A stretch of 64,000 nt of DNA. Origin: Psammoneis japonica (Eukaryota). Under the pieces are notes generated by a model, which was not told the origin of the DNA, made no database searches, and saw nothing but the letters and a program-made list of their open reading frames with translations. Both the position numbers and the translations under genes were made by a program. Positions 20,441 to 61,689 of this stretch are shown piece after piece; position 1 is the first letter of the stretch, and the number at the start of each line of letters is the position of its first letter. The stretch is taken from assembly GCA_008632985.1 (NCBI GenBank), contig QPGO01000019.1, positions 682,001 to 746,000 on the forward strand. The letters run 5' to 3'.

Positions 20441-20573
20441 GACTGAATGCCGATTGCTGCTTCACAGCACTGGGCCATTGCTCACTCTTTGGTCTGAGGT
20501 GTCATCTTGGAGTGGACATCCAAGTGATGTGTTGGAAGACCCGCAAAGCGCGCACGCACACGAGCCTTGACTC

Positions 20574-23002: not shown

Positions 23003-23455
23003 CTTGATCTTTTCACGGCAACAATGAGAGGAGTGGCACTGTTCGACAGTGCAACCGTTGTTTGGGTCGTGTTGAGACAGCCAGGCACTCTATTTTCTCT
23101 GTGACATTGCACAAACCATTGTCAGCAACATTGAAATTTGAAAACATGTTTGCACATGACAACGAACAGTCCAACTTGCTTTTTGATGTGGCTGTCATTG
23201 CGTTTCAACGGAGACAATGTCCTGCATTTTGACAGCAAATAAAAAGTGCAACATTCACTGTGGATGCCAGATAAAAAATCAAAGTGCAGATGCGTCACAC
23301 CTGTGAGAATCATCTCAATCTGGAAGACAATGTAATGTTTGCCAATTTCCCGCCATTTTTTGCGTGTTGTTCTTTTTTTCCCTTCTCATCCACAAGACAA
23401 GGAGACGACGAGCATGAGTCTTGATGAAGGCCCTGTCAACATTGTCTGATTTACA

Positions 23456-26400: not shown

Positions 26401-26718
26401 TCAAACAGGAAGACACAGGATCAATTTTTGCAGTTGTCCATCCAACTGCTTGTCAAGCTGACCAGAGAACTGTGAGGCAACGGCATCAGCACGCAGACTT
26501 GGTCAGTCGCTGGCAGCTTGATCACAAATGAAACAACTGGCTTTCAACGCCTGAGAAGACTCAGCACTCACCTGAGTTACGTGTTGTCCCTGTCAAAGCA
26601 ATTGGGGACAATGTTTTGGTTTATGAAGAATGTCCAGGAGCAGCAGAAGCACAAGAAAAGGCCCCATTTGTTTGGGCTGCACAGGACAGAAGGAAGTGTT
26701 GGTCAGATTTGTTTCTAA
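23456..26718 (+). pseudogene. Plavaka-like transposase, mutated and frameshifted
   Basis: Motifs VIYLDKT, WKPIGHLP, RDCHTCL, ITGDAKSGD, MMHLFE, WKLQKLHE, NFDAGLGE and HPDFKSKGPWCDF. The family is assigned from recalled motif pattern, not from a search. Confidence 0.7.
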
Positions 26719-26745
26719 AATAGGATGCGCGCATCAATCTGTCAT

Positions 26746-27710
26746 TCACTCACAGTGTGTGCATTTTTGGAGCAATTGCTTCCTCATGGGTTCTATGCAG
26801 TGTCCACTCACACGGTCCATTTGGTCATCCTGCACCATGAAATGTTCCCTGGCAGCCACAATCGCCTGCTGAAAGTCGGCTCTGTGGTCAGGCTGGTTGA
26901 CAGCCACCAATTGTGCCTTGATTTGCAATGCCAACTGCAGGACCCTTTCTCTTGCCACGGCTTCTTCGTCCACAGCCCGGATCGCGGTCCATGTCCCTCC
27001 CCGCATTTGATCTGTGCCTGGCCTCAGATCATACAAAGCTTGCCACTGTCGCTGCAAGGCAACGTCTTTCCTTCTCAAATCGTTGCAGCCTTCAGGATGC
27101 GCAGCAGCTGAGATAGATGTTGCCTTCAAAGGAGTGGCACGGCATGGCGGTGGATGGATTTGTTGATGCTGTTAATCGCAGATTGCTCCCTCTCCACTGC
27201 TCTGTTGGCATCTGTGTCAGAATTTGCCCCGAGGCTTCTCAGAAGCAACGTTGAGTCACAGCTGTGCAGCATGTGCAGCCTCAATTCTGATTTTTGATGT
27301 CCCGCAACAGAGATTGGGAGCCCCAATTCTTTTGCGTCAAATGCGTCACCGTGAAGAAAGCATTGGAAACTCATTTCCGCTTTGCTGCAATTTTCCACTG
27401 CAACAACACAGTCGTTGTCTGAACAGTGTGTCTCGATTGATGACTTGATCAACTGTGCATGGATGTGCTTAAATTCGCGAGTGGTTGTTGCTGGATTTAA
27501 CAAAGCACTGTCAAGTGCGGTCGTTGCAGCCACAGCGGCACAACGGGCTTCTGCCATTGCTTCTGCCGATCTTGACACAGCAGCCTTTGCATCCTTTGCT
27601 CTCTGTTCCTCTGAACAATGAGCAGCATCAGCGTGAACAAAACCATCAACTGTCCCCATCATCCGGCGACGGAAATCCTCAGCAGTGGACAGACGGAGTT
27701 CATCTGACAT
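26746..27710 (-). pseudogene. Second accessory ORF relic (helical, Ala-rich) inside the TIR element
   Basis: Overlapping ORFs 27126-27710 and 26746-27129 with protein-like composition and few Tyr. Confidence 0.45.
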
Positions 27711-30700
27711 GGTTTTCTTCTAATGCTCTGATTGTTGTGGTCGTGGGTCTGCCATTGCATTCACCAGATTGGTCGTGCGTCAGTCACAAAATTCTGGTTT
27801 CTGTGGAAACACACCAGAGTGGTGTGTGGGAGAAGTTGCATGCGCACCTGGTGGGATTTGGAGTTTTACACACAAAAACCTGCCAGACGCATGTGTGACT
27901 TCTCCCAGAGAAATCCTGCATGAGATCATGCCGGGAAAGGGCAATGCGGAGTGTAGAATTGACAGAAGAAAATGTTGTGCAGAACAGCATCAGGAGAAAG
28001 GGTGCATGCACTGGAAAACAACATGGATTTCTACATGCGCGTTAAGGCACGTGAAGAACACGTGGGTGCCTTCAAGTGACGCATGCAAACAATCACAAAG
28101 AAACATTCGGAAATGGGGACAGCACAGAGAGAAGTCAGAAGTGTGGATCCAAAACAAAGTGACACACGATGAAGGCAACGGCAACGGGATCGATGAAAAA
28201 GAAGGATTCGGACGGAAAGACGCCGGAGACGGTGAAAACAGGCGGCGCCAAGACAAAGAAGGAAGAGAAAAACAGGACGGGAAAAATGAAGAACGAGAAA
28301 AAGAAGCAGACGACACGACGTCAAGAGGGGAGCAGCGACACGACTCTGCGTTTCGAGGGACCTCTTCCTCTCGATGAAGAAATGCAGTGTGGCTTTTTTG
28401 GAACGGTGACAAGGAAACATCCAACGCGGCAGCGGCACACACATTTGAAATTCTTGCAAGAGAGCGGACAAGACATGTGGAATGAAGAGGACGATGTGGA
28501 CGAACAGGCCAATTGGAGCACAGTTGTTGACCAAATAATTGGTGCACACTTTACATGATGAAAATTTCATTGCATGTGATTGCAATGTTTGGCTTGTCGT
28601 TAAAGATCGTTGGCAGTTGTGAAAAAGGCTGAGCACAAAAGTTGAAAAGCATCTATGTTCAAACATGAAGAACAGCAGGAGATTGGCAATTGACTGAACA
28701 ACAAAAACCATCATGTGTGGACAAGTAGATTTTGTGATGTGGCAACACATTTTTGTCATGTGTGCAGACATTACGACATCGTGCACTCTGATGAGATGAT
28801 GCTGCAAGGGTTCATCCCATGGCCTTTACATTGGTCAGGGGTGCAGCTCACTTGCTGCAGTTGCCCTTGAATGGCAGAACCTCATGCTTGGTTCCTTGTC
28901 CCGCTTTCTTTTCTTGGGTTGGGCCCAGAGCTTGATTTCTTTCATTTTGGGGTGTGCATCCTCTCTGCCCTTCCACCTGGCATTCCAACCACATTTCCCA
29001 ATGTGTCTGGTCTGCCAATGTCTTTGTCACTCCCCTCCACTGTGGCATTGGCTCTGAGTCAAGTTCTGGTTCCTGTGCATCTCATTTCATCTGCATCACA
29101 TCCTTCTGATTCTTCTGCACTGTTGCCCCTGCTGCCCCCACAACTGGCATCAACCAACAAGTGGCAACCGGTCCAAGTCTGTGCCTGAATCTTCCACAGC
29201 AGCTGCCCCCCCCCCCCAAGACTCAAGACTTGTGCCTTTGTTCCCAAAGCAGTGCCCAGAAAATGAAGAGGACTTGAGAATGTTGGCATGGTTTGTGAGA
29301 AACCCAAAGACACTCACTTGAAGAGTGCCTCAAAATTGTGCAATCTGGGGAAGGCAAGTCTTGAGCAATGATGGAGTGCCCTTTGTCACATGCTCACTTT
29401 GCATTGCCAGGTCTTGATGTTGGTTGGGCTTCCATTTGCATTGGCAGGAGGCACTGTTGCTGCATGATGGCTCACTGAAAAATGGAAAAGTCCATTGCCT
29501 CTTTCCATTGCACACTGGCACTGCCCTTGGTTTTGAAGCACACTTGCCCAACAGAAACCACAGCAATGATTGTCTCCATGTTGTCAATGTTGGTCATCCT
29601 GTTCTTCATCATTTGGATTTCAAGGCTCTTTCCAAGAAAGCTGGCAAAACACCCACCAACAATGTGGTTGAGTTGGGTGGCATGTGTTTGGCATTTTGGT
29701 GGCATTTTTTGTCTTGCTCACAGTGGTTCATCCACATTCTTGTTTTGTCTTGTGGGGGCTGTTGTTCAATTGACCTTCAGCATTGGCTGGCATGCAGCCC
29801 TTGTTGTGCAGAAGGTTTCCAAACTTTGTGCAGACATTTGACTGCAATGGTGGTTTGGCAAGAACACCCAAACAAAATCATTTCAGCATCCAAAGTGCTC
29901 ACAAAATGACAGATTTGTTCCTTTGCCGGGTCTGAATGTCATGACTGGTGTGCAGCAATGACTGGCATTGATTTGCTTTTGTTCTCCAAAACCAGCAATC
30001 TGGTTAGATGGAGTTGGTGCAGCAGTTTTTTGTCATTGTGGCACTGTGCTAATTTCCCTTGATCTTGCACAAGCTGTGTGGGTGTTTGCAAAAAAAAAAA
30101 AAACAACGGGCTTCACCATGTGTCAAAAGAAAGACAGCAACAACAAACACTGAGACTTGTTCATCGCAGTGAGAAAAACTTTGTCAGAGTTGCAGAGATG
30201 GAGACTTTTTGTGTGGTTTTGACACAAAACAGATGACAACACAGCTGATGATGCACACATTGCACAGTGCACTTGTGTGTGTTCATGCCAAATGAGAGCC
30301 AAGAAATGACACAGCATTTGCCCTCATTTCTTTTCACTGCACTTGTCAATGATGAAGCAGAGAGAGGTTGAATTGTTCCATTCCCAGGTGATGCACAAAA
30401 CAACACTTCCTTTTGAGCACAATTTGCACAACAAGCTCTGTGTGTTCAGTCTGTTTGTCAAACACACTTGCACACTCTGCCTTTTGCATTTGATGAGAGT
30501 GTGAACATTTAAACATTTTTTTTCATTGGCGCTCAAATCTTCGTGGGGTGTTTCTGCAGAAACAACGCCAACTCTGTGCCAGCACTCACATTGTGGAGAC
30601 TTTTGTGCAAGCACACTGCTGCCACAAAATGCACACAGAAATGTTTTGTGTCAACCTCCAAACAGCAATGGCACATGAATCTTTTGTTGGTGTTTGTCAC

Positions 30701-32925
30701 AAAGAAAAAACATTGATTGTGCAAAACAATGACATTCTTGCAACCCTGACACAAGTCTTGTCAGTGTTGCAAAACATTGAAATTTGGGTGAATCTGCACT
30801 TTCAGTGGTTCTGAGCAGCTTGCCCCCAGCAAACAAATCTGATGCACTGTGGTGCAACACACAACCAATGGGTGAACATGTTGCAAGGCCACAGCTTGTG
30901 CCAGGGCCAAGGACACTGATGGAGGAGGAGAATGGCAAAAGTTCTGATGGTGAGAGGGGCACCCTTGTGCCTTGTGTTTTGCTTTGTTGAAGCTGGGCTT
31001 GCTGCGGTGAGATGCAAGGACCCCCAGCAATGAAGTGTGGGCATGTTGGCAAACCAAAAGGCAGGGATGCTGCAAATTGCTTTTGGCTTTTGGACATCAT
31101 TTTTTTGCAACAGCTTGCAGACAAGAAACGGCATTCCTGCACCCTCATTCCAGCAGATGAGAGTGAGAAAAAATTGAGTGCAATGTGAGCACATTGAAAT
31201 GTTCTGAGGAGGCGCCGAGCTGCAGTGATTTCAAGAATGAGAGCACACACAGCTGCAAATGACAGCCAAGGACAGACTGGGATGCTTCATTGGAATGATG
31301 CCAAAATGCCACCCAGAAACAGCAGCAGCAGGCACTGCACTTGGGGGTGCAGAAAACTGTGCTTTCTTCAAAAGGAATTCAATGATGCCATTGCTGCTCA
31401 TCTGAACGATGACATGGCAAAATCACTTGCACCGTGCACACCACTTGCAACCACCCAAGTTTGCAAGTTTGCGTGCAAGGCATGTGTGAGCACAAGCTCG
31501 CTCACAAATTCTTGATTGAAGACAGTGGGGAGGCCAAGAGAATGGACCAAGAGTGCATTGAATGCATTGCCAAGCTTGTGAAGGCTCGTCACAGCACAAA
31601 ATCTCAGCACCAAATCCATGCAGAAATCATGCAGAAAAATGCGGCCAATTTTTCATCACTCCCCAATGAAGAAAAGGTGAAAGCGGTGTTCATGTTCAAA
31701 ATTGGATGTTCACAAAGGTGAAACCACGATGAACTCAACTGTCTGTGGACCCTCCTTGTCTAGAAACAGCCAGAAAAGCTCAAATTTGAACTTCTGGATG
31801 GCCCCAAAACTCAAAAATGGCATTTCTGGACATTTCTGGACAAAGATCTGCAGAAAGATAAAAAAACATTGTGATTTAGTTGGTGAAATGTGCTCAGATT
31901 TTGGAGCTGCTGACCATTTTTGAACCCCAAACAAGACATGGCAGTTGAAGCAGTTTTGCGAGCAACACAGAGCATCTGGACTTTGGTTGCACAACTGCAC
32001 ATTTGCTCAAATGAAAAGCGGGTGCTCGTGGGGTTCCTGCACCTCAACAGCTGTTGTTTGCGTGACTGTCTGTCTCACTTCAACTTCAGTTGAACAAAAA
32101 CTGTTGGTGAGTTTCGCTTGCCTTGTGCACTTTGTTTTGTGTCAAGATGCTGCAGTTCACCAAGCCCCCTTTTTTAGAATTGCTGGGGCACTGCATTGAC
32201 AATTTGCAAGAGTGTCAAAATTGTTTGGGGCACTTTTCAAGAAGCAGCCAGAGGAAAAAGTTGGAAATGCCCAGATCAACCACGGCTCTCATGCAAAGCA
32301 AACCACACAGCTCTCATCCTTTTTTGTCAGGCCAATGTGTCCTGGATGACTGGGCCAGCTGTGCCATGTGTTGCCCACCCCCTCCAAGAATGGCTGATGT
32401 TTTGTCAATGGCAGCTCTCCATCCCGCACAACAAGCAAGCACTTGCACCATCAGCACGTGCAGCAAGCTGGCTTTTTTTGTTGGTGCTCTGCCAATCTGT
32501 GCTGCTTTTTGGTGCAGGAAAAGAAAGTTGCCAGCACCATGCAAACACGACCCCCTGGAGGGAGTCCCAGAGGGGGGGGGGTGGCGCAGCATGCAGGAGA
32601 TTGCTCCAACTCTCTGTTGTTGCTGGCAACAGCTTCTCATGCAGCGGCACTGTGTGCTGCAAGAGCAGCTGGACACCATGATCTGCCCATTGTCTTTTGA
32701 GTCACTGTTCCATGAGAGTCTCAAGCAGAATCATTGCATCAACTTGAGACCATGCTCTGCACCTCAAATCTCACTGTGTTGCCAGATGACGCTCGGGGTT
32801 GGACCGCACACAACGACGAAGCTCTCGAGAGTCCTGGAGAGTCTTCAGCAGCCAAACAATTCAAAAATGACACAATCCCAAAGAGCTTGCTTTCGGGGCA
32901 TGTGAATGTACATGGCAACCTCTGT

Positions 32926-37879: not shown

Positions 37880-38030
37880 CTGCACTCTAGGGCTACTCTC
37901 TAGCTCTAGAGCAGCTAGCTAGCTACAGCAGTAGAGGGCCCTCTACTAGAGCAGAGAGTAGCTACTAGCAGGAGCAGCTAGCAGCTTAGCAGCGGCAGTG
38001 GTCAACTCTCTAGAGAGTGGCTCTAGAGCA
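37880..38030. repeat. CTAG-rich palindromic low-complexity patch at the left edge of block B
   Basis: 18-bp palindrome agtagagggccctctact (37930-37947) among many ctag/agct units. Confidence 0.8.
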
Positions 38031-38286
38031 TGCAGACAGGCACCACGAATTGTTTTCAGTGCTGAGTTCAACAGCTCAAAATCCCTTCAATTCGAAAAAG
38101 AGATGCCAAGGGCCCACATTGAAGATTTGGTTCACAATGGCCAAAGAGAGAAACACATCAACAAAAGAGATCAACCATGGGAAAAAAACCTGCTGCACAA
38201 CCAAGCCAAGGGCAAGCTGCACAAATGTTCCTGCTTGGCCGCAAGGTGGAAGCCTGGTGCACAGAAAGGCACACAGTCTTGGGACA

Positions 38287-39330
38287 CCTCTTTGCTTTCA
38301 ACAGCAGCTGCAAGAGTTTGATTCATGCTTGGAAGAGGACACATGCCAGCACTTGTTGGCTTGACATTTTGTGACCTCTTGGTGTGAGTGCAAGTCACTT
38401 TGGCTTCTCACAGCTTGTGGCGCTGCTGGTGCACAAAGCAATGCATGGCACACAAAGACATTGTGCACTTCTCTCTTGGGCCACAGCTCTGAAGATGCCA
38501 TGTGGGCTCAAGCCACACATTTTCTGGATTGCCATTCATTGAAGCACCAGCTCTTGCAATTTGTTTGCATCATCAGAGCAGGTGCAACATCATTGCCAGA
38601 CACGTCAGAAGGGCACAACAGCAGAAAAACCTTGCTGGATGGCACAAAATGGGTTTCTTGCTGCTTTTTCATTGCTGTCTCCATGGCATTGCAGAGGTTG
38701 TGTTGCTCACATGATTTTGATTCTTGCCAGATTTTGCCCTGCTCACATCCAGTTTCATTGCACAAACACCCCGAACAAGTCTCAGAAGGTGGCAGCATGC
38801 AGGACATCTTGTGCACTTGGCCCCGTGTCCTCTCTTCTCTGCAGTTTTCAACTTTTTTGTGCCACAGCAATGCTGGGAGCTTGGAAGCTCTTGGAGTCAG
38901 GCACAAAAGCTGGGCACATTGCACAAAGTGATGCAAGTGCCACAAAGAGGTGCTTCTCTGCACATGGGCCACACAGCTGCTCATGTCTCAAAGCTCCTCT
39001 GTGCAGCATGTGCAAGCTGTGCAGCTGGATGTTTTGTCGTTGGCAGTCTTGTGAAAAAAAAAATCAAAACAGATGCCCAAAGCACTTGCACTGCAATGGC
39101 ATTTCCTTGCTCTGAGCAAGCAAAAAGAAACCAATGAAAGCATTGGATGCACCTGAGAAAGAGCTTGAAAAAACTTTCCAAAAGCAGCACGCAAGCATCT
39201 CAAAAGAGCACAAGCACTGTTGCAGGGCTTCCAGCGAGCACTGTCACAAGCCCTGCTGTGATTCTGCCACCCCTTTTGTGTTGCAGTTGCTGCTGCAACA
39301 CCAAACAAGCACCACAATGACTGTGCAACA
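38287..39330 (-). pseudogene. Mutated paralog of 48890-49900: MYND-finger 3' end plus about 900 bp downstream of the ARM-MYND gene
   Basis: Colinear shared blocks ctctttgctttcaacagca, aagtctcagaaggtggc, ggaagctcttgga and aaaaaactttccaaa. MYND WYC reads WCC here. Confidence 0.8.
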
Positions 39331-39596
39331 TCCTGCAACCCCTCTCTGTGACCATTGGTGCACCTCAGGACAAAGTGCACATGGAGAGGGGGCTGTGTTG
39401 ATTGTGCATGTCTGGGCACTGCTGTGCTTTCCTGTGTGGGGTGCCAACACCAAACAAGCATTGCAATGACTGCATGTCATCCTGCAACCTCTCTCAGTGA
39501 CTGTTGCACCTGGAGACAAAGTGCCCATGGAGAGGGGCCATGTTGACCGTGCTTGTCTGAGCGCTGTTGTGCACTTTCCTGTGTGGGGTGCCAGAG
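39320..39596. repeat. Two degenerate direct copies, about 148-bp period
   Basis: catcctgcaacc...gacaaagtgc.catggagagggg...tttcctgtgtggggtgcca occurs at about 39320-39447 and about 39468-39593. Confidence 0.8.
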
Positions 39597-40082
39597 CTTC
39601 CTGACACAGCAGAGCCCCTTCCCACAGCAAGGGCTGCAGACAAATGACTGCCAACTTCCGGACTGACAAGCACTTCCACGATGGCATGCCCTGCTTTGTG
39701 CAACAAAGAAGGGTGGAAGGCTCTGCCGCAGTGCTGGCCTTGCCGGTTGTCGCCGCAAGAAGCACAAGCAGCAGAGCGCCAACAGCGTGCTGGTGGCAAA
39801 TGTGGTCTAGACTGGGAAACAAATGGTGCTGCAGTGCATGTGCCACTTTATTTCTTCATCTGTGAAAGGATGATGCAGGGCTTCAACCATGGCTTGAGCG
39901 CCTCTGGAGCTTCCTGCAGCAGCCAGCTGCGCTGACGACGCTTGCCAACTCTCTCACACAAGAGACCTGCACTCCCAATCTCATGCATTTCACATGGGTG
40001 GCTTCCATGTCCTTTGGAACTCCAAACTTGATCACAAATCACAAGATGCGGTGGATGGATGGCTTCAACAACAGTTGGGATT

Positions 40083-40316
40083 AGTCGAGATGCAGTCCTG
40101 CAGCTGAGCAGGATGGATGAGACCTCGGAGGTTGGCAGCAATGTGAACAGCGACAGAGGCAAACAGACGCTTGTTGAAAGTCGTTGTCTGGAAATTGTGA
40201 CGAATGTCGTTGCTTCTGTTTGAATCGATTTTGTGATGAGCCAATCATTTCGAAGAGAAAATCTGAGTCTGGGTTGCAGTCGTGAGATGCGACCAGAATG
40301 ACGTTGAGTCGTGACT
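40083..40316 (-). repeat. 3' LTR (234 bp), zero TpA
   Basis: Gapless match to 47091-47324 except at 12 dinucleotide sites. Confidence 0.97.
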
Positions 40317-40337
40317 CTCCCTCTCAACCGAGAGAGC

Positions 40338-43300
40338 TCACCAGCCCATAAGAGCCTTTCTAGCCGTGCGGAACGCATCGGTCCGTAGTCCCTTCGTGAA
40401 CTGATCGGCCAGTTGCTCTAGAGTGCTGACAGGTTGGACATCGATCTCCAATTGTTCGACTTCAGTCCTAAACCAGTGGTGCGGGATGCCGATGTGTTTG
40501 GTTCGCGGAGACAACTTGGGCATGCGTGCGAACTTGAGGCACGCGGAGTTATCTTCGCACACAACGGACGTAGGTGGGACATTCTGTGCTACAGGCGAGT
40601 CATCGGTGCCTTGGGTTGCGAGCTCAAAAGCCTTGGAGTGAGTCGTGACAGGGTTTTGGCGGTCAGACTTTCCGAATGCGTGGTGGTTGAGCTCCTTGAG
40701 AACTTCACGAATGGGGATGAGATCGCGCATGGCTTGAGAAAGTGCGACACATTCCGCTTCCACAGTCGACAATGCTGCAAGAGTCTGCAGCTTGGACACC
40801 CAGATGAGCGGGCAGCCGGCATGGCAGACAAGGTGTCCAGTCCTGGACTTGACAGAAACTGGGTCTTGACCATCTTCCACACCAAATAACCCCGCGAAGT
40901 CAGAATCGACGTAACAATCAACTCAATGATCTTGCGCAGGCTTGAGAATGAGACCTTCAGTGGCAGTTGCTTTGAGGCATCGGAGTGTCCGCTTCACTGC
41001 AGCAGCGTGGGACGCTCGGGGCACAAACGAGAATCGAGCTGCTTGATGTGTGGCACATGCAATGTCTGGCCGGCTGTTCGCTGCCAAGCACATCAACATT
41101 CCAACAACTGAGCGACAATCGCAGGGTTCATCAAAAGGTGGGCCGTCCGTGTCGGCACCAACAGCCGCAGGTAGAGCTGGAGTAGATGCTCCATTGCAAT
41201 CCTGCATCTGTGCGGTGCGTAGGACCTTGTCAATTAGACCGGGTTGAGTGAGTAGAAATCGACCCTCGGAGAGCTTTTCGATCTTGACACCGAGAAAGTT
41301 GCCGACTTCTCCTTCGTCTCTAAGTTCAAATGCGTGGCGATGTTCGTCGTCGGAGACTCCTAACTTGCGAATTTCGGCTTCTAGAGCTTCAGCTGAAGCT
41401 CCAGCAAAAACGGTGTCGTCGACGTGCACCACACACATCATGCCCTCTTTGAAATACAAACAGGGATCTATGGCTGAAGGCACCCATCCGCGCTCGGTTA
41501 AACCAGCTCGTAACTTCTCGTAGAAGCCCTTGGGAGACTGTTTTAGGCCGTGTGGTCCTTTCAAAAGTTTGAGAACCACATTGAGTCCCGACCTTGGCGC
41601 AAATCCCTTCGGCGGTGTTGCACAAACTTCCTCGGCGATGTCAGCTTGGCAAAAGGCTGTGGCACAGTCCACCTGTCGTGCAGTCCATCCCTCCTTTAAT
41701 GCCGCAGTGAGCATGAGTCGGGTGCTGGACCATTGCACAACCGGCGCGCAGGTTTCGAAGCAGTCGACTCCTTCTTTCTGCAAATCACCGCGGACGCAGT
41801 GTCGGGCCTTGTGCTTGAGAGGGGTTCCATCTGGGAGTCTCTTGAGCTTTGGTGCCCATGTGCCTGGAAGCACATTCATGTGCGGCTGACGCTCGACTGC
41901 TTTCCAGGCTCGACGATGCATAAGTGCGTTGACTTCAATTTTCATCGCCTTGGTCCATTCGTCGGCGTCCGGACCTTTCAGAGCATTGTGTGACGAAGGC
42001 ATGTCAGGGTCCTTGGTTTTCTTGCTAGCTGCGCAGGCTCGTGGATCGCCGATGTTGATGGCGCCACTGTCCAAATCCGTCTCGAGAGTCGCCAGATGCG
42101 CCAGTTGAGCCTCGTGTCCAATCGGCAGCGGCACTTCCTCGACGGAGCTGAAGCAGACCTCATCTACAAACTTGGCAGAGTTGAACTGTCCCTTGGTTGA
42201 CCGTGAAGACCGTCGCAGCCCTGGCACTCCCTCTGGATTCGTCACAGGAGGTGTCTCGACTGGGGGAGGAGCTGTTGGTTCCGTCGGCGCTTCGGGTGGC
42301 GGAAGTCCGTCACTGTCTTGAGGTTCAGGTGGCTGAATTGGCGTAGAGTCCGCAGAGTCTGCAGGAGTTTGAGTCGCAGGTGGGACTGGTGGCGTTGGCT
42401 GCTGAGTCGCAGGTGCGACTCGATCGGCAACGTCGTCGCGAGAAGTGGGTGAATCCGGCACAGTGATCGATGGAGCAGGCTCAAAATGCCCGTGAATGCG
42501 TGTTGCTCTGGCCAGTTCTCGTTCTTTACGTTGACGCTCTGGAGGGGTAAGCCACTCATCGTGTGAATGAACTGCCTGATCCTTCTCCAGAGGGATGCAT
42601 GTCGATTGGTTGAGGCACAAGTGTTCCCAGTGATCAGGTGGATCCGTCTCCCTCTCAATTGATGGTGCGGCAGTGAAGAGATCGTCAAAGACCACATGAC
42701 ACTGAGGTGTGACACTTCCAGTTTGAAGATTGAGGACCAAAGGAACCTCACTGGAATGGATGGTGCTGAGTCCCACGAACAAAGCGCGACGAGTGCAAGG
42801 CTCCCAATGCGGGAGCTTCTTCCCGGAAGCGAGGGTTGGGTCAAGTGCGTACGCTGGACATCCCCATGTGTGAATGTCGCGCAACCGATGTCTTGGCACT
42901 GTTGAACCGGTGAAAATGTCCGCTGGGCAATGTCCTTTGGAATTTGGGGTGACATTGTAGACACACGTGGCACAAGAAACTGCCATGGGCCACAGGGAGC
43001 TGTCAATTCCCCCCTTCCAGTGGATTGATGCATGAAGCAACATCGCTCTCGCCATGTTGGAGATGCTGCGGATGCCCCGCTCTGCGACGCCGTTCTGATG
43101 ATGGGCGTTGGTTCCACAAAAACGGAGACGTTGTTCATGTTCTCGCACATGTTGTACAAAAGCGTTGGCCTTGAAAGCGCCACTGTCGGCAAGAAATTCT
43201 TGGACGATGACCCCGTGGTCCAAAGCATGTTTCTCAAACGCTTGCTTCGCGCGCATCGTCTCAACAGCGGAGAAACCCAGTTGGTGCCCGACCTGGACAT

Positions 43301-46300
43301 GGCCAGAGGCGTGGTCGACAAAGATGCAACCGCCCTTGAATTGCTTGGACGTGGCTTTGCCATAAGAGTCGAAGGTGCGGCCTAAAAGGCGCGACTCAAA
43401 ATGATCAACGCTGACAGCCTGACCCGGTCGAAGATGGTCAGCTCGAAGGGCCCCATCGCGTTCAGGGACTGTCGACTTGTGAGTAGATCCAAGAGAGCGT
43501 CTGTGACCTTTAGCATGTTCGCATGCCTCGCATCTTGGGTGGTCACACTTCGCTGCGGACTTGAAACGGTTCGAAAGGAACGGAACTGCGCGGAGAAGTG
43601 CTTGGACGCGACCAAAGTTCAAATGGCCAAAACGGGCGTGCATTTCGAGAAGAAGCTTTTGGCCTGCCGTGAGGTTTTGATTCTCCTCGTTGAGGATCTG
43701 AAGGTTCACTTGAGGAGCGGCAGATGCGCCCTTGGTCATCGACGCAACAGGCAAGTGGCTTGATGGATGACACGGCACGACCAACTTGCCCATCCCGTCA
43801 ATGTGTGAACGGAAAGTGGTTTCATCGCCCTCATGCTTCCCACGCACCCCCTTCTCTTCGTTGAAGAGGCGTTGAGGCGACAGCAGGCGCTGACGGGCTC
43901 CAGGGACGTAGTGTGCCATGGTGTTCAGGTGGATGGCAGCCCCACTCGGCGTTGTGAACACCCACGCAACCGGACCGGTGCCCTGGATGGTGAGACCGTT
44001 GGCAATCCCATTGATCTGCAAGGGTTTCTTGGGAACAGTCACAGGCCCCGTAAAATCATCTTTGTCGGGGGCAATGGCTGACGTGGCACCAGCATCCATG
44101 ACGACCGTGAGAGCCTCGTCCGACAGACCGATGAGTGCCTGCGGATCGGATGCAAGGAGGTCGGCTTGTGATTGTCCGGTGAGCAGTTGGATGGTGGAGG
44201 CACCACAGACGACTGGTCTAACACTTGCTTCCTCCAATGGTTCCACAGGATCTTGAAAATGGGTGGTGTCCACGATGTGATGCGGCAGACAGAGCTCGTC
44301 AAACCGGAAGAAATCCGGGCTGAAGTCCTCAAGAGCGTCAAAGAAACACTTCTGGTCGTCGAGAGATTCCAGTTCCTCACAGGTGTCAAAGAAGGCTGAT
44401 TCGTCTATCGCATCAGACCATTCAGCTACTTCTGGGCTCTCCCAGCAGGCCTTGAGACGAGTGCTCAGTGCGTGTGACGGATGGCGCGCGACAAACTCGG
44501 TGAGTGCTTGCGTGCCTTTGATCCTGTGACATTCGAACAGTGACCCCGCATCTAACACTATCCGGTCATCTAGCTCTTCCACAATGTGGTAGACTTGAGA
44601 GCTGGCGGTCGAAAAACGACTTGGCACGTTCGAGAATGGACACTCGGGCTGTTGACCGGCGTAAACTGCTGACCACACCATCACTGCAACGGATGGGACC
44701 ATCCAGGAGGCTGGAAACCCGTGCAAAGTTGGGAGTTTGCGCTGGCGGCGTAGAGCTCGAGGGATGCATGGGATCGGAGCAAAGCAAAGATGCAGTGCCG
44801 TTTCCCAAAACATGGCGGCGAGCCAGAATGTGAACAGCTTGACTCAACCCAAGAGTGAGCGACGCGAAGTGGGCTCGTCTTCGACGTCCTCGTGACAATC
44901 ATCCGTGTCCAGGACCTCTGGATCGTAGAAATCGAAGCCACGACACGCAACACACGGAGGTGAGTCGCAGTGTGCGTCTTCAAAGTGTACGTCGTGTTCA
45001 AGGATGAGATCTAACTTGGTGTCGTCTGACAGCACATCCGTCAAATGTGCGGGAGCATCAAAGAACTCATCTGGATGCTTGACAGAGTACAGCTTCGAGG
45101 CCGGAAACAACTCAATAGCCGGTGGTTCGTTTTCAAAGGTAGAGAAAGCGTCGGAGTGTTCGTAGAAGTCATCGGCGTCTTCGGGAGTGACAGTCTCAAC
45201 CACGATGGGAGACACGACTGGATCCACGACTGAGGTGAGTGCAGGTGGGCTCGTTTTGATGCAAACCACCTCAGTGCTGACGACTGCATCGCTCTCCCTC
45301 TCGGCCGAAGAAGCCGGAGTAACAACAATTGCAGCAGCAACAGGGGCGGAACAGAAATCCGGGTCGGTGACGGGATCCGTAGCCGCGCACCACATTCCCG
45401 TGAAAACCAACTCGTTGGGGTCGGATTCGTCTCCCTCTGGTGCCTTGGCAGTCTGAGCGGGCGGACCCATGGGCACGCCACTGTCCGGATCAGCAACGGA
45501 AGACAAATTCCCGGCTGGGGTCTCCTTGGGAGGTTGCCTGCGGTCGTCAGCATGTTCCGCGGTAGAGTGCTTCTGGTGGATTCCAGGTTTGTCGGCACCC
45601 TTCGCCGTGCACGTGGCACACCACTTCCATTCCTTGCCATTCTTATCCTTCTTCGTTTCTCCGTCAAATTTAGCATGCCAGGCAGCGATGGGTCACCTCT
45701 TCTTCTTGGAAGGGTCGTCTGCAGGCGGCGGATTGGGAGGAGGATCGTCGCGCGGCGGTTTGGCGTTGCACTTCGGACACGTCTTCTTGGTGCACCCCTC
45801 GAGACCGCAACCACAACAGTGCTTCGTCTTCCCAGGGTCATCCGTAGTCGAAAGATTACTCTCGGGTAGCTTGGCGACTAATGCAGGCCATTCCCCGTCC
45901 TTCACGAGTTCGTTGTGTTGCTCTTGAATCCACGCAATGATGCCGACCGGTCCGAGCGTTTTGCAATCGCTGTCGGACACGATGTCAGCAGGATTCTTGA
46001 GGCGGCACTTGCGTTCCACAGCCTTGACATCGTCGAGCTTGTTGTAGACTCGGCGATTGAAGTGTTCAGAGGACGTAGAGGAGATCTTGTGGAGCAGCTT
46101 GGAGCTTGTGTTCGCCGGAAGCGCGTGGTCGGTCTGCACAATTTTCACGATGCGAAGAGCTTCGGTGGCAAAGTCCGTGCAATCCTCGCCGGGATGGTCA
46201 ACCAAACTGAGGTCTTCTAGCTGCTTCTTGGCCGTCTCAACATCCGTTAGAGCGCTGGCATTGCAAGTGTCGAGAGCCATCATGAATAGAACAGATCCAG

Positions 46301-46928
46301 GGCAGTCTTGGTAGTCCGAAAGATGGTTGAACTTGGTCTCGATTTTCTCGCGAAAGGTGTCAGTGATTCTTGAGTGAACGAGAAGTTGAGAGAGCCCGAC
46401 ATCGTCGAGCTCGATCTCGTCGTACTTGGCATCATCGGTGGCTGCTTTCCCAACCGTGTACTCGTTCACGAGATCGGTCACAGTAAACTCGTGAAGATGG
46501 TCGAAGACATGTTGAACCTTGTCGTCGCTGTCCTTGACATGGCAGAACGTCTGCTGACCGTGGGCTTCTGCTGGATCTCGAACAGTCTTGACGAAGTGGT
46601 CCTTGTCAAGCTCGTTGATGGGACTGTCCGAAATCTCAAGTCGACCGTTGAACTTGGAAGTCATTGCGGAAGCTTGTTGATCGCGGAGAGATCGTTCTGT
46701 CGAGTCGAGAGCCTTGGGATGACGGCGCTGAGAGGCGAGTCGGCAGGTTCTGTCGTTGGATTGTTCGCAGTTGTTGTTGAGTTTGGAACCACCAATGTAA
46801 ACCCCGTGGGTTGGGTGAATTCCACCACGTAACGGCTTGGTTGGAGCCGGAGGAGCGGTCGCCGCGGCGTTGGCGGCCATTGCATCGGCAAACGCCTTCG
46901 CCAGAACATCTGGATCGATGGCAGCCAT
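40338..46928 (-). pseudogene. Single-frame gag-pol (2197 codons) with three internal TGA stops and many Tyr to His/Cys changes
   Basis: ORFs 45693-46928, 44844-45506, 40923-44813 and 40338-40880 share one frame. Motifs MDAGA, HARFGH...CEAC, HHQNGVAER, KARHCVRG, PHGLKQ, HVDD, YVDSDFAG and EAECVALS. Confidence 0.93.
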
Positions 46929-47090
46929 GACAGAGAGTGCAGTGTGGGAGGTTCTTGTTAGAGTGAAGACGAGAGAAGCGAGAGAGACTCAGCTATTTCC
47001 CGGGTTTGCTTCAAAATCAAAAACCGAAAGCGTCCGTGACGATGACTCGGTCAGGAGCTCTCGTCAACGCGCAAATTGGTCTCTGCGACC

Positions 47091-47324
47091 AGTCGAGACA
47101 CAGTCCTACAGCTGAGTAGGATGGACAAGACCTCGGAGGTTGGTAGCAATGTGAATAGCGACAGAGGTAAACAGACGCTTGTTGAAAGTCGTTGTCTAGA
47201 AATTATGACGAATGTCGTTGCTTCTGTTTGAATCGATTTTGTGATGAGCTAATTATTTCGAAGAGAAAATCTGAGTCTGGGTTGTAGTCGTGAGATGCGA
47301 CCAGAATGACGTTGAGTCGTGACT
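47091..47324 (-). repeat. 5' LTR (234 bp), retains 10 TpA
   Basis: Direct repeat of 40083-40316 at offset 7008. Confidence 0.97.
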
Positions 47325-48452: not shown

Positions 48453-49770
48453 ATTGTAGAAGATTCAGAGCCGTGGACTTCAGTCAAATTGAAGACAAGG
48501 ACTAGAGCAACTCAGTGCTCACAGGCAGAATGATATATGGCTGGAGGTGATGGCACTATATTGTCAAAGTGCAGTCAGAACGTTTGTTCATGTGTGCATC
48601 GCTATGGTAGTGCTCGTGAATGCACGTAGTTGAATTGTTGGTCCAACTGCCAATGCTGCTCTAAGCATAGCGAGATAACCTAGAGAAAACGTGCATGTTT
48701 CGGGAAGCTTGCGAATGCAAGGGAAGTGTTTCGGAAAGAACCACTTTTCTGTGTCCTCCAACGAAGAATTTCTCTCGTAGTGCTTAACGTGTCTTGTCTC
48801 CATTGAAATGTACAGTATTGGACAAACCACAAACCTTTCTGCCTGGTCGCAAGGCGGAAGCCTGACAGAAAGGCGCATGCTTGAGAAAGCTCTTTGCTTT
48901 CAACAGCAATTGCAAGAGTTTGATTTTATGATTGACACATTTGTCGTCTTTACATCGCGATCTCTAGAGTATACACAGGTGGGTACAATTCGCTTTGCTA
49001 GCTTGGCACCGGTGAAGCGACGCGCATTAGTGTAGAGAAATTGTGCATATCTCTCGGATTGCAGTTCCGACGATGTTATTGGATCCGTATATTCTCCGAA
49101 ATGCTACTGATTCGATTGCTATCTTGGAGCTGGTGCCACATCGCGAGAAACGTCTGAAACGGCATAAGAATAGAAAATCTAGCTGATTGGTGCAACATTT
49201 TACTCGTGGCTTTAGTTACTATCACTGGTGTGTTGTAGAGGTAGGATACCTTTCGATTCCTACTAGATTGAACTACTATTCCAGCTCTATTTTCATTGCA
49301 TGAACACAGAGTTAAGTCTCAGAAGGTGGCTTACTCGTACAGGATATCTTGTCAAAGTCTCAAAATATATATCTTCTTAGACTAGCGTCTGCCATTATAA
49401 CGCTGAGAGCTCGGAAGCTCTTGGAATAGGATGATGTACGAAAACTAGACACGTCACAAAGTGATACAAAAACTAATGAGCTACTTCTCCTATGTGCAAC
49501 ATGGATCACAACGGTTCATGTTTCAAAGCCCTACACGGTATGCGTAAATTACACTACTGGACGTCTCGTTGGCTACAAGCCAAGCCAGCGAATCGATTTT
49601 CAGATTGGAAAAGGCGCAGCGGCTTTTTGGAAACAGATATATCCAAAGCATGCACGCTGCAATGATGTTTCCTTGCTCCAAGCAAGTAAAACAATTCATG
49701 AAAGTGTTGGATGCATCCAAGACAGAGAGCTTGACAAAAAACTTTCCAAAGGAGCAACGCACGAGGTATC

Positions 49771-50860
49771 TCAAGAACGAGCGTTGTTGCGGGGTTTCCA
49801 ACGAGCCTTGTTGCACGCATCCTTGTGATTCGGCCAATCCTTTGTGTTGCAATCGCCATTGCAATACCATACAATGTCACAACGATTGCACACCATCATA
49901 TCCGCTGATTCCTTTCCGCAACACTTGCATTTAGGAACAACCGTGTTCATGCAGCGGATCGCATTGGTTGCAAAAATCTGAATACTGCGCTTTCCTGGGT
50001 GAGATACTAGAGCTTGCTCCATGACACAGTCACCTCCTGCAGCAAGGACTGCAGATGGATAACCACCAACTTCTTGACTGACAAGCATCGCCGTGATGGC
50101 GCATCCGGATGCTTGAATATCCGCATCGTCGGGATGCTGATTCATGCAAGAAAGTAGGGAGGGGATTCCACCACAATTGACTATCTCCGCAAACACAAGC
50201 GGAGCGTCAATGACGCTCGTGGCAAAAAGGATCGAGAGTAGCGAAAAGATGGCATTGTAATACAAGTGCTTTTTCGTCGTTTCTTCCTCTGTAAAAGGAC
50301 ACTGCAGGACTTCGACTATGGCCGGTACGCCTCCAGCGCATTGTACGTCCGTAACATTGACAGTCGCCAACTCGCCCAAAAGATCCACACCGCGACTCAT
50401 ACATTTCAGGTAGGTGGTGGTGGTTCTCCAAGCCGCTGGAATGCCAGCTTTGATTACATGGTGGACAGCTTGAACAACAGTTGGAATTCCGCCGCTCTGA
50501 GCAATCGCGGCGGCGCAGGCATAACTCGGCAAGCTATCGGCAACCCCAGAAAGAGCAGCACAGCAGAAACACATACCAGATGGGTCATTCTGATGTTTTC
50601 GCATAAAGACAAGAATACTTTCAATGCCTCCAGCCTCGACAAATGCCGAAGCTGCACGAGTCCTGTCCTTTTTGAAGGCACGAAGGAGCTCCGCCATGAT
50701 GGCCGAAGCGTTCACATTGCTCTCGTCGCTTCGCAGTTTCGCGACCACAGCCTGCATGCGGCCAACGATCTGCTCGTCCTTCTTCTTCTCGAGCTAAAGG
50801 CACATTTGCCACCGACTTGATCTTGCCTTTGACTCGGTTACGACGGCTTTTCTTTCCCAT
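49771..50860 (-). CDS. ARM-like repeats + MYND zinc finger, copy 1 (1-nt frameshift near 50780; intact ORF from 50757)
   Basis: C-terminal CKCC...CNRC...WYCNGDC...WPNHKDAC. The family start MGKKSRR at 50860 is out of frame with MQAVV by one base compared with the 63388 copy. Confidence 0.8.
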
Positions 50861-53089: not shown

Positions 53090-56000
53090 AATCACAAACA
53101 ATTGATCCAGCTTTGTTTTCTGGCACAAAAAAACAGCATGGGCGATCGAAGAGAAGCGGCGTGCTTTTGATGAGATCATGGTCCTTTGCTATCATCTCCT
53201 CAGTGCACAGAAGAAAGGGGCACAGCAGAAGGGAAGTCCGCCACCACTGCCACTCTACATGACTCCAGCCACCACCATCACCTGGCACTGGTGGTGGCAC
53301 AGCCACTGTGTGCTTCTTTTTCTCAATCAATTCAGTGGAAAGCAGTTGTTGCTCAGCCAAGGCAAGTTTTGCCAACTCTTCTTTGTCACATGGCTTGAAG
53401 AGGCACAGCACATTGTTGATTCATTGTTGGAGAGACATGCCTGCAACTTGCTTGTGAATTTTTCCACCTCAAGCTCCTGCTTGCAGCAGCAGAGATCATG
53501 AGCTGTGCAGCAGAGGGGACATTGTCAAATTTTGTTTTTCAGCTTCTCACAGCAGCAGCACTTTTTTGGTGTGGGGTTGGCAAAGCCCACACACAAGCAT
53601 TTCAGAAGAGGGGCTTGGCTTGTGGCTGGGAGCTGGCTCCTGGCTTTTTAGCTGAAAACCTTCTTGTGGCTCCACAAAGACTGTCCTCTCCTTGAGCTGG
53701 CTCAGCTTGTGTGGCAGCAGAAGGCAGCACCAGCAGAATCAAGCCAGCATGTCATCTAACCTGCCTCAAGCACAATGGTGACAAGCAGCAGCAAAAAGCA
53801 AGCACATGGGCCATCACATTGCAAGAGATTGTGGCTGGAGAAATGCTGCCAACTTTGAAGACTTGGCAGCTGTTGACTTCATGATGCTCTTTGCTTGGGG
53901 AGTGACGATGGTGATGTCAAGTGGTCTGCAATGACTCATGACAATGGCAACAATTCATGAGTCATTTGTCAAACAGGATGAACAAGATTGCAATTGGTTG
54001 GCTTGGGGGATCATTGCAGGAGTTGCAAAAACAAGTTCACAGCCTGACATTGCAATCACAGGCACCAGTGCAACTTTTCCATTTTCAATGTGTTGCACAG
54101 AGCTTGAGCAACTTTCTGATGTGTGCCATTGGTCTGAAGATGCCTCCCAGTTCCCCTCTGTGGGGTGTCAGATCTGACATGTCACCTGCAATTTGGTTGA
54201 CGCGTCTGCATCTGTGAGTGCGGCCTTTGCTTGGAAGGAGTGTGGGAGCCATCCGTGATGCACACAGCAATGCCATCTAGAGAACTTCTTTTGCTGGGGC
54301 CTCCAAAGTTGGTTGAAACCATGGGAAATGAAGCATCACTCTGTGTTGCTGAGTGGTCTCTTTAGGGTGGCTGGAGTCAAGACAGGGGAGCTCCTGTTGA
54401 CAAAATCTTGATTCCTTGCCTTTGAGTGTGGGTTGGGAGGGTGTCGTGAGGGGCCACATCAATGAATCATCCATTAAATTGACAACATGCTCTGCAGCTC
54501 CTGCATTGTTGAGGCAGTCATGTGCATGACTCAATCTAAGTCTTGGTCCTCTGAAACACACCATCCTCCTGAGTTGAGTGCAACCATGGTGTGTTGGGCT
54601 GTTCTTTCCATGTTCCCACTGCTCTCCTCAATCTGAGTTGATCATTCCATCTGATGGGACAAGGTGGCAAGTTGTGAGCACTTCTTGCCAAAGTCTGCAG
54701 CAGGGCTGCTGTCCATTCTTGTCCATTGTCCTTTGTGATCCAGCAGGGTGACATCTCCCACAGGTGTGTTTCTGCTGCAGAGTTGTGTTTCCAGTTGTCG
54801 TTGACCCACCTGAAGGATGCCAAGGACCAGCATCTTTTCTGGAACTGGTGCACCTCCATGTGACAGGATGCCACCCTTTCCAGCAGTTGAGCATTTCTTG
54901 AATGCTCTCCAATGCATCTTTGCAGGTTGTGCCCAGGTTTTCTGGAGCGCGGGGGAGATCATCTGCATCATCCACAAAGGTGGTGCAGCACACAGAATGA
55001 TGTGCTTGTTTGGAGACAAGGGTTGCTTCTGCCCTGATTCCAAATCCTTCAGCACCCTCAGTGTGTTGACAACAGGAAAGCTTGCTGCTGACCATGTTGC
55101 TCTTGTGCCACTCCATGTCCTTGGAAAATGCCTTGCAGTGGAATCTCCAGGGCCATGTGCAGTTCTTTGGAATCCCTGTGTGCAGCTCAAACACAAGGTT
55201 CATTGCCTTGTTGTCTTTGGGCACTGCTCCTGCTCCAAATCTTCTCATGCATGGAGCTGCAATGCAGTGCAGGATCCAATCACAGCATGACTTGGCATCT
55301 GTGCTGTTGGTTGCTCCTGGTCTGTGAGATTGTCAAAACACATCACCCATCAGCACTTTGTTGAGCACACACAATGTGGCTCTGTGCCACCATTTTCCAT
55401 TGCCACGTGCTTCCCTGGGGATTGCCTTGTGAGTCTCCATGTGATTCGCCAGCACTCATGCACAACACTTGTTCATCTTGTCACACATTGCATCAAACAA
55501 GACAGTGATTCATGATTTCTTGATGTGAGAAGATTTGGTCTTTTGTTGGAATCATTTCATCTCTTCCACCTTGGTCCAGCATTTGGGTGCACAGCCATGT
55601 TTTGACAGTGTGGCAGACACACATGAGGCTTGCTCGACCGGCTCACAAAACAAACAAATCAAAAAAAGGAAAGCGCTTGGCGCAGAGTTCTGTGGCGTGA
55701 CACAAGGCCACAACCTGACAGAGTGCCAAAGGTCAATGATGACAGAGGCATGAAAGACTCCCCAAGCACTGGGACTGTGATGCCACAAGCACCAGCAGAA
55801 GAGAATGAGAGAAGATCTCAGAGAGATCTGATCGTCCATCCAGAAGGTCTGTCCATCATCCATGTGCAGAGTCTGTCCATTGCAGAACAGGCACCAGACT
55901 GACATTGCCTTGCCTGCTGGGTTGCCAAGCAGCAGACCTGGACCATCACCTTTGAGAAAGAACAGCAGCTGTTCCTGCAAAAAGCAAGGAATGCCAATGG

Positions 56001-56440
56001 GAGTGCATCAAGTCTTGTCTCCTCCCCCCAAAGCCAGCCAGTGGAGCTCTTTTGGACCCCCAGCACCAGATCACAAACAAGACAAAGACAGCCATCATCG
56101 CTGGCAACTTGTGTCAATTTTTGCATGGCTTTGCACACAACATGCCTCTGTCACCCCACCAAGCAAATTGGTCTTGACAAACCACAAAATGCCGGGCCAA
56201 AAGCAAGCCGCCAAACATTTTGGAGATGGCACTCATGAGATCACTCTCCTTTCTGAGAGTGTTGTTGCTGCTCGATTGTCGATTGTCAAACACAAAGATG
56301 GTGTCACTGGCAATGGTGCCAGTGATGACAGACAGCATTGATGTGCTCTTGTTGTTGCTGCCAATGTTGTCACACTGGATGATGATGGAATTGTGAGAAA
56401 AGCAGAGAAGATTGCTTCAAAGTGAAGGCTGGAAACACTG
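53090..56440 (-). mobile_element. Heavily mutated non-LTR retrotransposon relic (TpA/CpG-depleted block C)
   Basis: RT motifs DAKSCCDWI (55273-55299, compare DAKSCYDRI) and TTFVDD. Many frameshifts. TA is almost absent. Confidence 0.72.
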
Positions 56441-56841
56441 CACATGCGCACGGGCGGGCGGGCGCGAATCGCGCATGAGTTCGCACTGTGGCTGACAACC
56501 AGCCTCGATCAAAACGGGCGGGTTTGTCGAGCGAGGTTGGACAACATTATTTTTTCATTTTTCTCGGATTTGTAACTTGCAGGTTAGAGTCTGCCTTTTA
56601 ATCGAAAAACTGGGTGACTTGTGTGTTTCAAGATGCTTGTCAACCAACGGCCACAACATTTACGTCTGTGAACAGGGCTGATCGTGGGATACGATGCGGG
56701 GGAAGTTTTGGATCGCGGCAATGCCACGAATAAAATCCGCGATGGTCATTCCCACCGCCGGATGGGGATGTCAGAATTTCGTTCTCACAACAAGCAAAAG
56801 GAGCAACAAACGAGCGCATTTGATTCCTAAAGCCAGCAACT

Positions 56842-61331: not shown

Positions 61332-61689
61332 ACTTGACTCTCAACCTTCCGTCTGCATTGACAGCAGTGCTGTGGCTGTCATTTTGCATGCCACATCAAC
61401 ACGGAAACCGGAAACCACATCATCTCTCCCCTTTTTGCCTGAGCGTATTCTGAGTCCCGTCATGACGTCAGTGAATCGTGAAGCACGACTGACGTGTGTA
61501 AGCTGCTGGTAATCCGGTCACATCATTGCGGGGCCGGGGGTACAGCAGGCGGAGGGGGGAAGATTATTTGTCGTCTCCATTACATGCATCTTCTGCGGCC
61601 ACCCTCGCTCGCGCCCCTCGGCGGGTGTCCCCATTGTCGTTGTGTACGACCCGCTTCGAACCCCCCCTTTTCCCCCCATCGCACCTCAT

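Follow-up and report, generated by a model that had tools for sequence, protein, structure and literature searches.

In a 64,000-nucleotide window of a contig from Psammoneis japonica (the whole stretch of DNA analyzed here, with positions counted from its first letter), a Ty1/copia retrotransposon at 40083..47324 on the minus strand, together with other inserted or silent DNA, has probably been hypermutated at the DNA level by a locally targeted process that converts TpA to TpG or CpA; this degree of confidence concerns the process and excludes the question of deaminase chemistry. The two long terminal repeats (LTRs) of the element align without gaps and differ at 14 nucleotides, all of them transitions and distributed over 12 dinucleotide sites. 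At ten of these the right (5') LTR has TA where the left (3') LTR has either CA (seven sites) or TG (three sites), and at the other two, the swap sites, the left LTR has TG and the right LTR has CA. Thirteen CpG dinucleotides are intact in each LTR, neither these nor the other positions (approximately 184) differ, and the TA count is ten in the right LTR and zero in the left. Every TA of the right LTR (10/10) is changed in the left, a result that 14 randomly placed changes produced in none of 200,000 trials. The preliminary description of this LTR pair had reported the ungapped 234-bp alignment that differs at 12 dinucleotide sites only, the division of those sites into seven CA, three TG and two swaps, the loss of all TA from the left LTR and the survival of the CpG dinucleotides; realignment and recounting reproduce each of these. 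Its proposal that saturation was reached before ordinary mutation holds as well, no CpG or other LTR position having changed.

The best interpretation of the swap sites is an ancestral TA that would have been changed on opposite strands in the two LTRs, because an ancestral CpG would need two changes while the 13 other CpG dinucleotides are untouched. Conversion thus amounts to 12/12 sites in the 3' LTR (on the sense strand seven TG and three CA, plus the two swap sites) and 2/12 sites in the 5' LTR (Fisher p 6.7e-5). The converted sites of the 5' LTR number 0/8 in its first 197 nucleotides and 2/4 in its last 37 nucleotides, which lie beside the heavily converted interior of the element. Change at 12/12 TA and at 0/~184 other positions of the left LTR would imply, by simple arithmetic, a more than 100-fold excess at TA.

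The element has all the features of a Ty1/copia retrotransposon: LTRs, a 5-bp target-site duplication (TSD), a polypurine tract, and the order gag, integrase, reverse transcriptase (RT; RVT_2), RNase H. The TSD is perfect (GGATT on both sides), so the element represents one insertion, the LTR limits are exactly the 234 bp first given, and both LTRs would have been identical at integration. Repeat detection ran 7 nucleotides past the LTR ends, the excess being chance similarity between the left flank and the primer-binding side; a recombinant copia element was considered and dropped once the GGATT duplication and the 234-bp limits were recognized. A TA straddles the junction of the left TSD and the LTR (40082-40083). 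A single frame running from 46988 to 40341 comprises gag, a pre-integrase motif, integrase-type regions, RVT_2 and RNase H; the best named relative of its pol is from Fragilaria crotonensis (54-55% identity), and its RT motif is HVDD where homologues have YVDD. The frame is interrupted by three in-frame stops, all of them TGA (45693-45695, 44844-44846 and 40923-40925). The last of these aligns with a conserved Arg of the homologues, which suggests a change of CGA to TGA and possibly an early sign of CpG decay. In a public sequencing run, the word depth of the copia family is 2,600-7,800 compared to 46-68 for the flanks, or about 45-130x, and other family copies differ in sequence in the region on the primer-binding side. 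Two further runs covered almost none of the stretch.

Direction, context and targeting of the changes

An LTR pair alone has no direction, and polarity was assessed in three ways: from conserved tyrosines, from codon changes and from a host paralogue. The pol of the element was aligned with 29 diatom homologues, and a column was taken as conserved Tyr (codon TAY) where at least 70% of the homologues have Tyr. At the 23 conserved-Tyr columns, the copia element retains Tyr at two and has Cys (TGY) at ten, His (CAY) at five, Phe at four, Ser at one and Trp at one; in a leave-one-out control, the 29 homologues retain 71-100% of conserved Tyr (median 90%). Other conserved residues are retained in the element at 67-94%, except Ile (40%, replaced mostly by Val) and Thr (50%, replaced mostly by Ala), the changes that would be expected of A>G after a preceding T. 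A single nucleotide change can explain 80 of the replacements at conserved columns. A>G accounts for 25 of them, 20 at TpA, and T>C for another 15, of which 13 lie at TpA, and G>A and C>T together account for only six; A:T>G:C changes therefore number 40, with 33 at TpA. In the comparison of the host paralogue with a second converted segment, the single-copy block 2 that precedes the element, 13 aligned TA correspond to six TG, six CA and one AA, and 19 aligned CG correspond to eight CA, four TG, three CG and four others. Because conserved Tyr codons became TGY or CAY and the TA of the paralogue became CA or TG, alignment indicates that TA is the ancestral state and CA and TG are derived. The opposite polarity, which the preliminary description had named as a possible objection to its reading, was examined: Tyr codons have been destroyed, not created, and all three lines agree with its claim of A-to-G change at TpA on either strand.

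The TA dinucleotides that survive are not a random sample with respect to their neighbors. In the copia element, 14 TA remain of approximately 160 expected in the context RTAY, in which a pyrimidine is 3' of the A on both strands, compared to 49 of approximately 152 in mixed contexts and 46 of approximately 95 in YTAR. Among the TA that survive in the four TA-poor blocks of the window (described below), with both strands counted, there are 4 in RTAY and 68 in YTAR, with mixed contexts intermediate, the same order as in the copia element. A two-strand rate model places the +1 bases in the order T > C > G ~ A in both the element and the blocks. An effect of the +1 base and an effect of the -2 base are inseparable by TA survival alone, but are separated by the outcome, namely which strand was mutated. 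The mutated strand had a +1 pyrimidine at 7/8 informative LTR sites (p 0.035) and at 12/16 informative codon sites, a set biased by Tyr codons; at 11 CA/TG swap sites between family copies, where the ancestor could be either TA or CG, the +1 rule is right at 5/8 informative sites. The motif that the mutator prefers, as given by these contexts, is 5'-TAY-3'.

The address of the process appears to be positional (a chromatin domain or a transcription unit) rather than based on homology, because identical LTRs approximately 7 kb apart were converted to such different extents, and a homology-guided mutator, whether guided by DNA pairing or by small RNA, would be unable to tell them apart. Similarly, only one of two paralogous segments was converted: the copy at 48.8-50.1 kb is untouched. 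The side of the element on which TA survived is that of a neighboring gene, only the gene-side (5') LTR having kept its TA; the element is inserted at the exact point where the older block 2 borders on the DNA upstream of an AIG1-like GTPase gene.

Two refinements of targeting were tried and rejected. A transcription-coupled model, in which the U3 part of the 5' LTR is spared as untranscribed, finds no more than a suggestive pattern in the distribution of LTR sites, and the TATA-like AAATAATTAG at LTR positions 67-76 would leave several intact TA in the transcript. Strand-coordinated (processive) action is unsupported in the copia element by a runs test on 33 inferred events (p 0.60).

TA-poor blocks and other features of the window

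The window derives from the nuclear genome of a diatom-like stramenopile, and its genes are long uninterrupted open reading frames (ORFs); the best named relatives of its subtilase are from Skeletonema and Proboscia (approximately 43-45% identity). Beyond the LTR pair to which the preliminary description was confined, four sharply bounded blocks nearly without TA account for about 23.8-23.9 kb, or 37% of the window, and contain together 76 TA where 1,524 are expected from base composition (Table 1). The longest TA-free runs reach 2,011 bp. The edges are sharp: at the left edge of block 1, successive TA are 4-70 bp apart as far as 15824, after which none follows for 531 bp, and at the edge at 56548, 2,011 bp without TA are followed by TA at 56548 and at +25, +37 and +51. 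The GC content of the blocks is 0.49 compared to 0.47 for normal DNA. Block 1 is a mosaic of sub-blocks that differ in CpG decay. Across the window, subwindows of low CpG are always low in TA but the reverse is not so, and the implied order is TpA loss first and CpG decay later in the same domains.

Table 1. Positions of the features discussed, and observed/expected (o/e) dinucleotide ratios by class of DNA
Feature	Position	Strand	Remarks
Block 1	15825..32909		17.1 kb; 66 TA vs 1102 expected; CpG 370 vs 1031
Old copia pol relic, in block 1	17077..19982	+	Conserved Tyr kept 0/22
Plavaka-type DNA transposase relic, in block 1	23681..25123	+	Tyr 0.42% vs 3.0% in homologues
Block 2	38025..40082		2 TA vs 126 expected
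TSD GGATT, left copy	40078..40082		Identical to 47325-47329 by sequence inspection
3' LTR (left), 234 bp	40083..40316	-	TA 0, CpG 13; 12/12 presumed ancestral TpA converted
Polypurine tract GAGAGGGAG (minus strand)	40317..40325	-	Abuts 3' LTR
gag-protease-integrase-RT-RNase H frame	40341..46988	-	RVT_2 E 2e-31
Primer-binding side of internal region	47061..47090	-	Directly follows 5' LTR
5' LTR (right), 234 bp	47091..47324	-	10 TA kept, 13 CpG
TSD GGATT, right copy	47325..47329		Matches left copy
AIG1-like GTPase gene	47316-48452	+	Divergently oriented from copia; adjoins spared LTR part
Unmutated paralogue of block 2	48828..50100		Polarity reference; 3' end of MYND/Arm gene and downstream DNA
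Block 3	53100..56548		8 TA vs 218 expected
Block 4	61646..62907		0 TA vs 78 expected; CpG half lost (46 vs 79)
TA-free blocks			o/e: TpA 0.05, CpG 0.33, CpA/TpG 1.72
Young copia	40076-47324		o/e: TpA 0.24, CpG 0.95, CpA/TpG 1.26
Other host DNA, including AT-rich intergenic			o/e: TpA 0.56, CpG 1.00, CpA/TpG 1.19

The converted DNA is of more than one origin, the copia element, the copia relic and the Plavaka-type relic being transposable elements (TEs) and block 2 a decayed paralogue, single-copy at 90% likeness or more, of the host segment that served as the polarity reference. In the copia relic of block 1, the conserved Tyr residues are replaced by His (six), Cys (five), Leu (four), Trp (three), Phe (two) and others (two), and Arg is kept at only 9/36 positions, the rest having become Cys, Trp or His as CpG decay predicts. 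Depletion extends to the DNA-transposase relic, so that the process does not require reverse transcription; 27/30 members of the Plavaka-type alignment match PF18759. The ORFs of blocks 2, 3 and 4 had no family match in Pfam, and a tblastn comparison within the window gave no paralogue for block 3 or block 4. Conversion of TpA to TpG or CpA is unable to create a stop codon and removes TAA and TAG, which explains the long spurious ORFs inside the blocks.

Around these blocks lie tandem genes that encode Armadillo repeats and MYND fingers (49771-50793 and 51672-53084 on the minus strand, 58666-60006 and 63334-63996 on the plus strand), a family with 36-63% protein identity; block 2 holds a decayed 3'-end fragment of one member. 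Block 2 also contains a 62-nucleotide direct repeat (39296-39357 and 39445-39506, 81% identity, spacing 149), which blastn extends to approximately 150 nucleotides. Another direct repeat, of 210 nucleotides (10584-10793 and 11037-11247, 86% identity), lies unconverted in normal, TA-containing intergenic DNA. Homopolymers of 11 C (29205-29215) and 13 A (30091-30103) occur within block 1.

Known systems and candidate mechanisms

The preliminary description knew of no eukaryotic system with this signature; on this point it has been overtaken by a 2026 preprint on the rhizarian alga Bigelowiella natans (bioRxiv 10.64898/2026.01.13.699255, Mettrop et al.). According to its main text, 231 of 302 mutations in mutation-accumulation lines fell in two integrated viral regions, consisting of nucleocytoplasmic large DNA virus (NCLDV) and virophage DNA, and in 230 of these the change was A>G or T>C, invariably on TpA, at approximately 1000x the background and in some lines only; the genome has 124 clusters depleted of TpA and enriched in CpA and TpG, RT and DDE domains are enriched among TpA-poor coding sequences, and an ADAT2-like DNA adenine deaminase is proposed (10.64898/2026.01.13.699255). 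That main text makes no mention of diatom, CpG, flanking or trinucleotide (10.64898/2026.01.13.699255). A literature search returned no account of TpA loss in diatom TEs, and this preprint as the one description of the signature. By analogy, the process described here appears to be of the same kind as the TpA-only hypermutation of B. natans, in a new lineage, with new targets and at the stage of saturation. As reported there, the changes are A>G or T>C only, at TpA only, on either strand and apparently in discrete foreign or silent regions, the targets can be single-copy, and the long-term trace is depletion of TpA with enrichment of CpA and TpG, including in RT and DDE domains. The reported NCLDV region has a TpA o/e of 0.45 in a rhizarian, whereas here the host is diatom-like, the targets are TEs and a host paralogue, and the o/e is 0.05; coupling to CpG decay, the +1 pyrimidine and base-sharp edges are features of the present case that the account in the preprint's main text does not share, and the rate excess given here is an arithmetical estimate from sequence.

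The preliminary description likened the process to a reverse of repeat-induced point mutation (RIP). Its chemistry is indeed of the opposite direction, but the likeness does not extend to targeting, given the unequal LTRs and the conversion of one paralogue of two without the other. Like RIP, the process hypermutates a specific dinucleotide by transitions and leaves mobile DNA permanently inactive in sharply bounded blocks; however, RIP makes TpA from CpA, and here TpA is lost with no enrichment in AT and no stops created. The blocks also resemble DNA undergoing CpG decay driven by 5-methylcytosine (5mC), having lost CG to TG and CA, but CpG decay is slower and later than TpA loss, as the young copia element illustrates (Table 1), and cannot yield A:T>G:C. 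Context-dependent hypermutation of retroelements as a defense, of the deaminase type, is known for APOBEC3 and ADAR, but APOBEC gives C>T or G>A; ADAR acts on RNA and prefers a 3' G, whereas the changes described here are post-integration, affect both strands and a DNA-transposon relic, and favor a 3' pyrimidine.

We infer that an enzyme is the agent of these changes and that defense is their function. The proposed process would change A to G at TpA on one strand or the other, preferring 5'-TAY-3', in LTR retrotransposons, in relics of DNA transposons and in a gene duplicate that has decayed; it would act after integration and, at the edge of a domain, stop over a few tens of bases. TpA would change at least 100 times as fast as other positions, hence reaching saturation before CpG decay, and slower CpG decay (CG to TG or CA, presumably by deamination of 5mC) would then follow in the same domains. 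Inactivation without new stops would result from Tyr>Cys or His, from Ile>Val or Thr, and from loss of TATA-like and AATAAA-like signals. The most likely chemistry, with close to an even chance, is that adenine in DNA is deaminated to hypoxanthine by a protein of the deaminase fold, whether TadA/ADAT2-like or another. The natural target of TadA and ADAT2, A34, follows the invariant U33, so that a T/U-A context is intrinsic to these enzymes; the natural context of TadA is UAC and the tRNA contexts of eukaryotic ADAT2/3 are UAA, UAG and UAC, whereas the best context here is TAT.

The same substitutions could arise from the opposite base, since in the sequence an A>G change on one strand is indistinguishable from a T>C change on its complement. 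It is unlikely, but conceivable, that the T of TpA (best in 5'-RTA-3') is oxidized by a TET/JBP-type enzyme to 5-hydroxymethyluracil (5hmU) or 5-formyluracil, which would mispair with G or be misrepaired to give T>C. Dinoflagellate DNA carries 5hmU preferentially at TpA, and 5-formyluracil is prone to mispair with G; we know of no such thymine modification in diatoms, however, and a domain search of the window yielded none of the TET/JBP type. Adenine deamination is also what the sole published discussion of the signature favors in its main text.

Confinement of TA loss to domains that later show CpG decay, and its precedence over CpG loss, would fit a process in which TpA is mutated as collateral of repair: a T:G mismatch from 5mC deamination would recruit long-patch, error-prone repair by a Pol eta-like polymerase (WA>WG), which would mutate nearby TpA and restore the CpG. 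This route is quite improbable. Errors of Pol eta favor WA with A>G, but AA is hardly affected (among codons, two A>G changes at AA compared to 20 at TA) and the LTRs have no changes outside TA. The mild sense-strand excess of A>G that would speak for this route (27 vs 16) is not significant (p 0.13), and the B. natans mutations are described as exclusively at TpA.

Heavily modified repeats can yield systematic errors on some platforms, and miscalling of modified TE bases, such that TA was written as CA or TG, would mimic the signature. A contig from the public run (2,935 nucleotides, word depth 60) spans 38001-40112, comprising block 2, the TSD and the start of the LTR, and reproduces the TA-free block with no gaps and three single-base differences in 2.1 kb, which suggest another haplotype or strain. 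This contig, the graded CpG decay and amino-acid replacements that the blocks share with real evolution, and the same loss of Tyr in three unrelated environmental transposase ORFs make such an artefact very improbable. These three long ORFs (P0270, P0311 and P0287; 1,127-1,290 amino acids), found among 150 representatives of the Plavaka-type family, contain no more than a single Tyr each; at conserved-Tyr columns one of them has His only (6/9), another Cys only (6/8), and the remaining one three His plus two Cys (of nine), and all three retain Arg at 12-13 of 16-17 positions. The His-only and Cys-only ORFs hint at strand-coordinated TpA conversion in other organisms.

Classical RIP-like C>T mutation, by which the right LTR would have gained TA and the left would be pristine, accounts for the LTR pair if polarity is disregarded, and diatoms are reported to encode a RID-related DNMT4 of unknown function (PMC9998398), but it is scarcely credible, being contradicted already by the loss of Tyr codons, by the TA-poverty of element and blocks without lowered GC, and by the TA o/e of the right LTR (0.55), which is that of host DNA (0.56). 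DNMT4 may be relevant to the CpG part of the process and not to the TpA part. Editing of RNA by an ADAR- or TAD-like A>I activity, followed by reverse transcription and integration of edited copies, is likewise next to impossible to sustain: U or T before the edited A is described as common to RNA adenosine deaminases, but edited copies would have arrived with identical LTRs (already contradicted at this locus), both strands are affected (20 sense A>G and 13 sense T>C at TpA), the DNA-transposase relic and the host-segment paralogue are affected too, and the +1 preference is for a pyrimidine and not for G.

Several observations weigh against locally targeted TpA hypermutation as set out above. 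The family copies in the public run have 129 variable places (108 transitions and 21 transversions, with many CA/TG double swaps at one dinucleotide), fewer than expected if approximately 100 copies had mutated independently, and several swap sites have the opposite dinucleotide to this copy in 61-100% of the depth. Source copies that were already mutated and still amplifying may have passed on some of the internal TA loss, and the LTR asymmetry could stem from ectopic gene conversion in which another copy served as donor for one LTR. The platform of the public run is not on record, and the run may derive from the sample behind the assembly. Among 79 metagenome loci with related copia pols, no TA-free block was found (TA o/e 0.23-0.88, longest TA gap 448 bp) in a scan that used peptide patterns containing Y or F and so disfavors mutated copies. 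A domain search of 57 ORFs in unmutated zones found no deaminase or polymerase domain, in agreement with the preliminary description, which saw no candidate mutator gene in the window. The evidence base is one 64-kb window with one LTR pair, from which the process is deduced rather than watched as mutations happen.

Significance for diatoms and other protists

To our knowledge, irreversible defense by point mutation in eukaryotes has been recognized essentially as C>T, in RIP and by APOBEC. An A:T>G:C counterpart specific to TpA has one prior report, in the main text of the rhizarian preprint, and would here be extended to an ecologically dominant group of phytoplankton, in which ordinary transposons show the process at saturation. 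The field of candidate enzymes is narrowed by the 3' pyrimidine, action after integration, base-sharp edges, positional targeting and precedence over CpG decay. Blocks that are TA-free and rich in CA and TG offer a simple mark for the annotation of dead mobile DNA. In such algae mutation may silence transgenes, and a naturally occurring DNA adenine editor directed at TpA would be of interest to genome engineering. It is a possibility to be entertained, somewhat short of an even one, that a dedicated DNA adenine editor of 5'-TAY-3', addressed by chromatin or transcription, is the first line of irreversible transposon killing in diatoms, acting before cytosine methylation has left a trace, common to diatoms and chlorarachniophytes, and either ancient or repeatedly acquired in the SAR group. 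If so, the enzyme would be a natural editor of A to G in double-stranded DNA context, and the nearly Tyr-free environmental transposase ORFs (3/150) would be its footprint in other marine protists.

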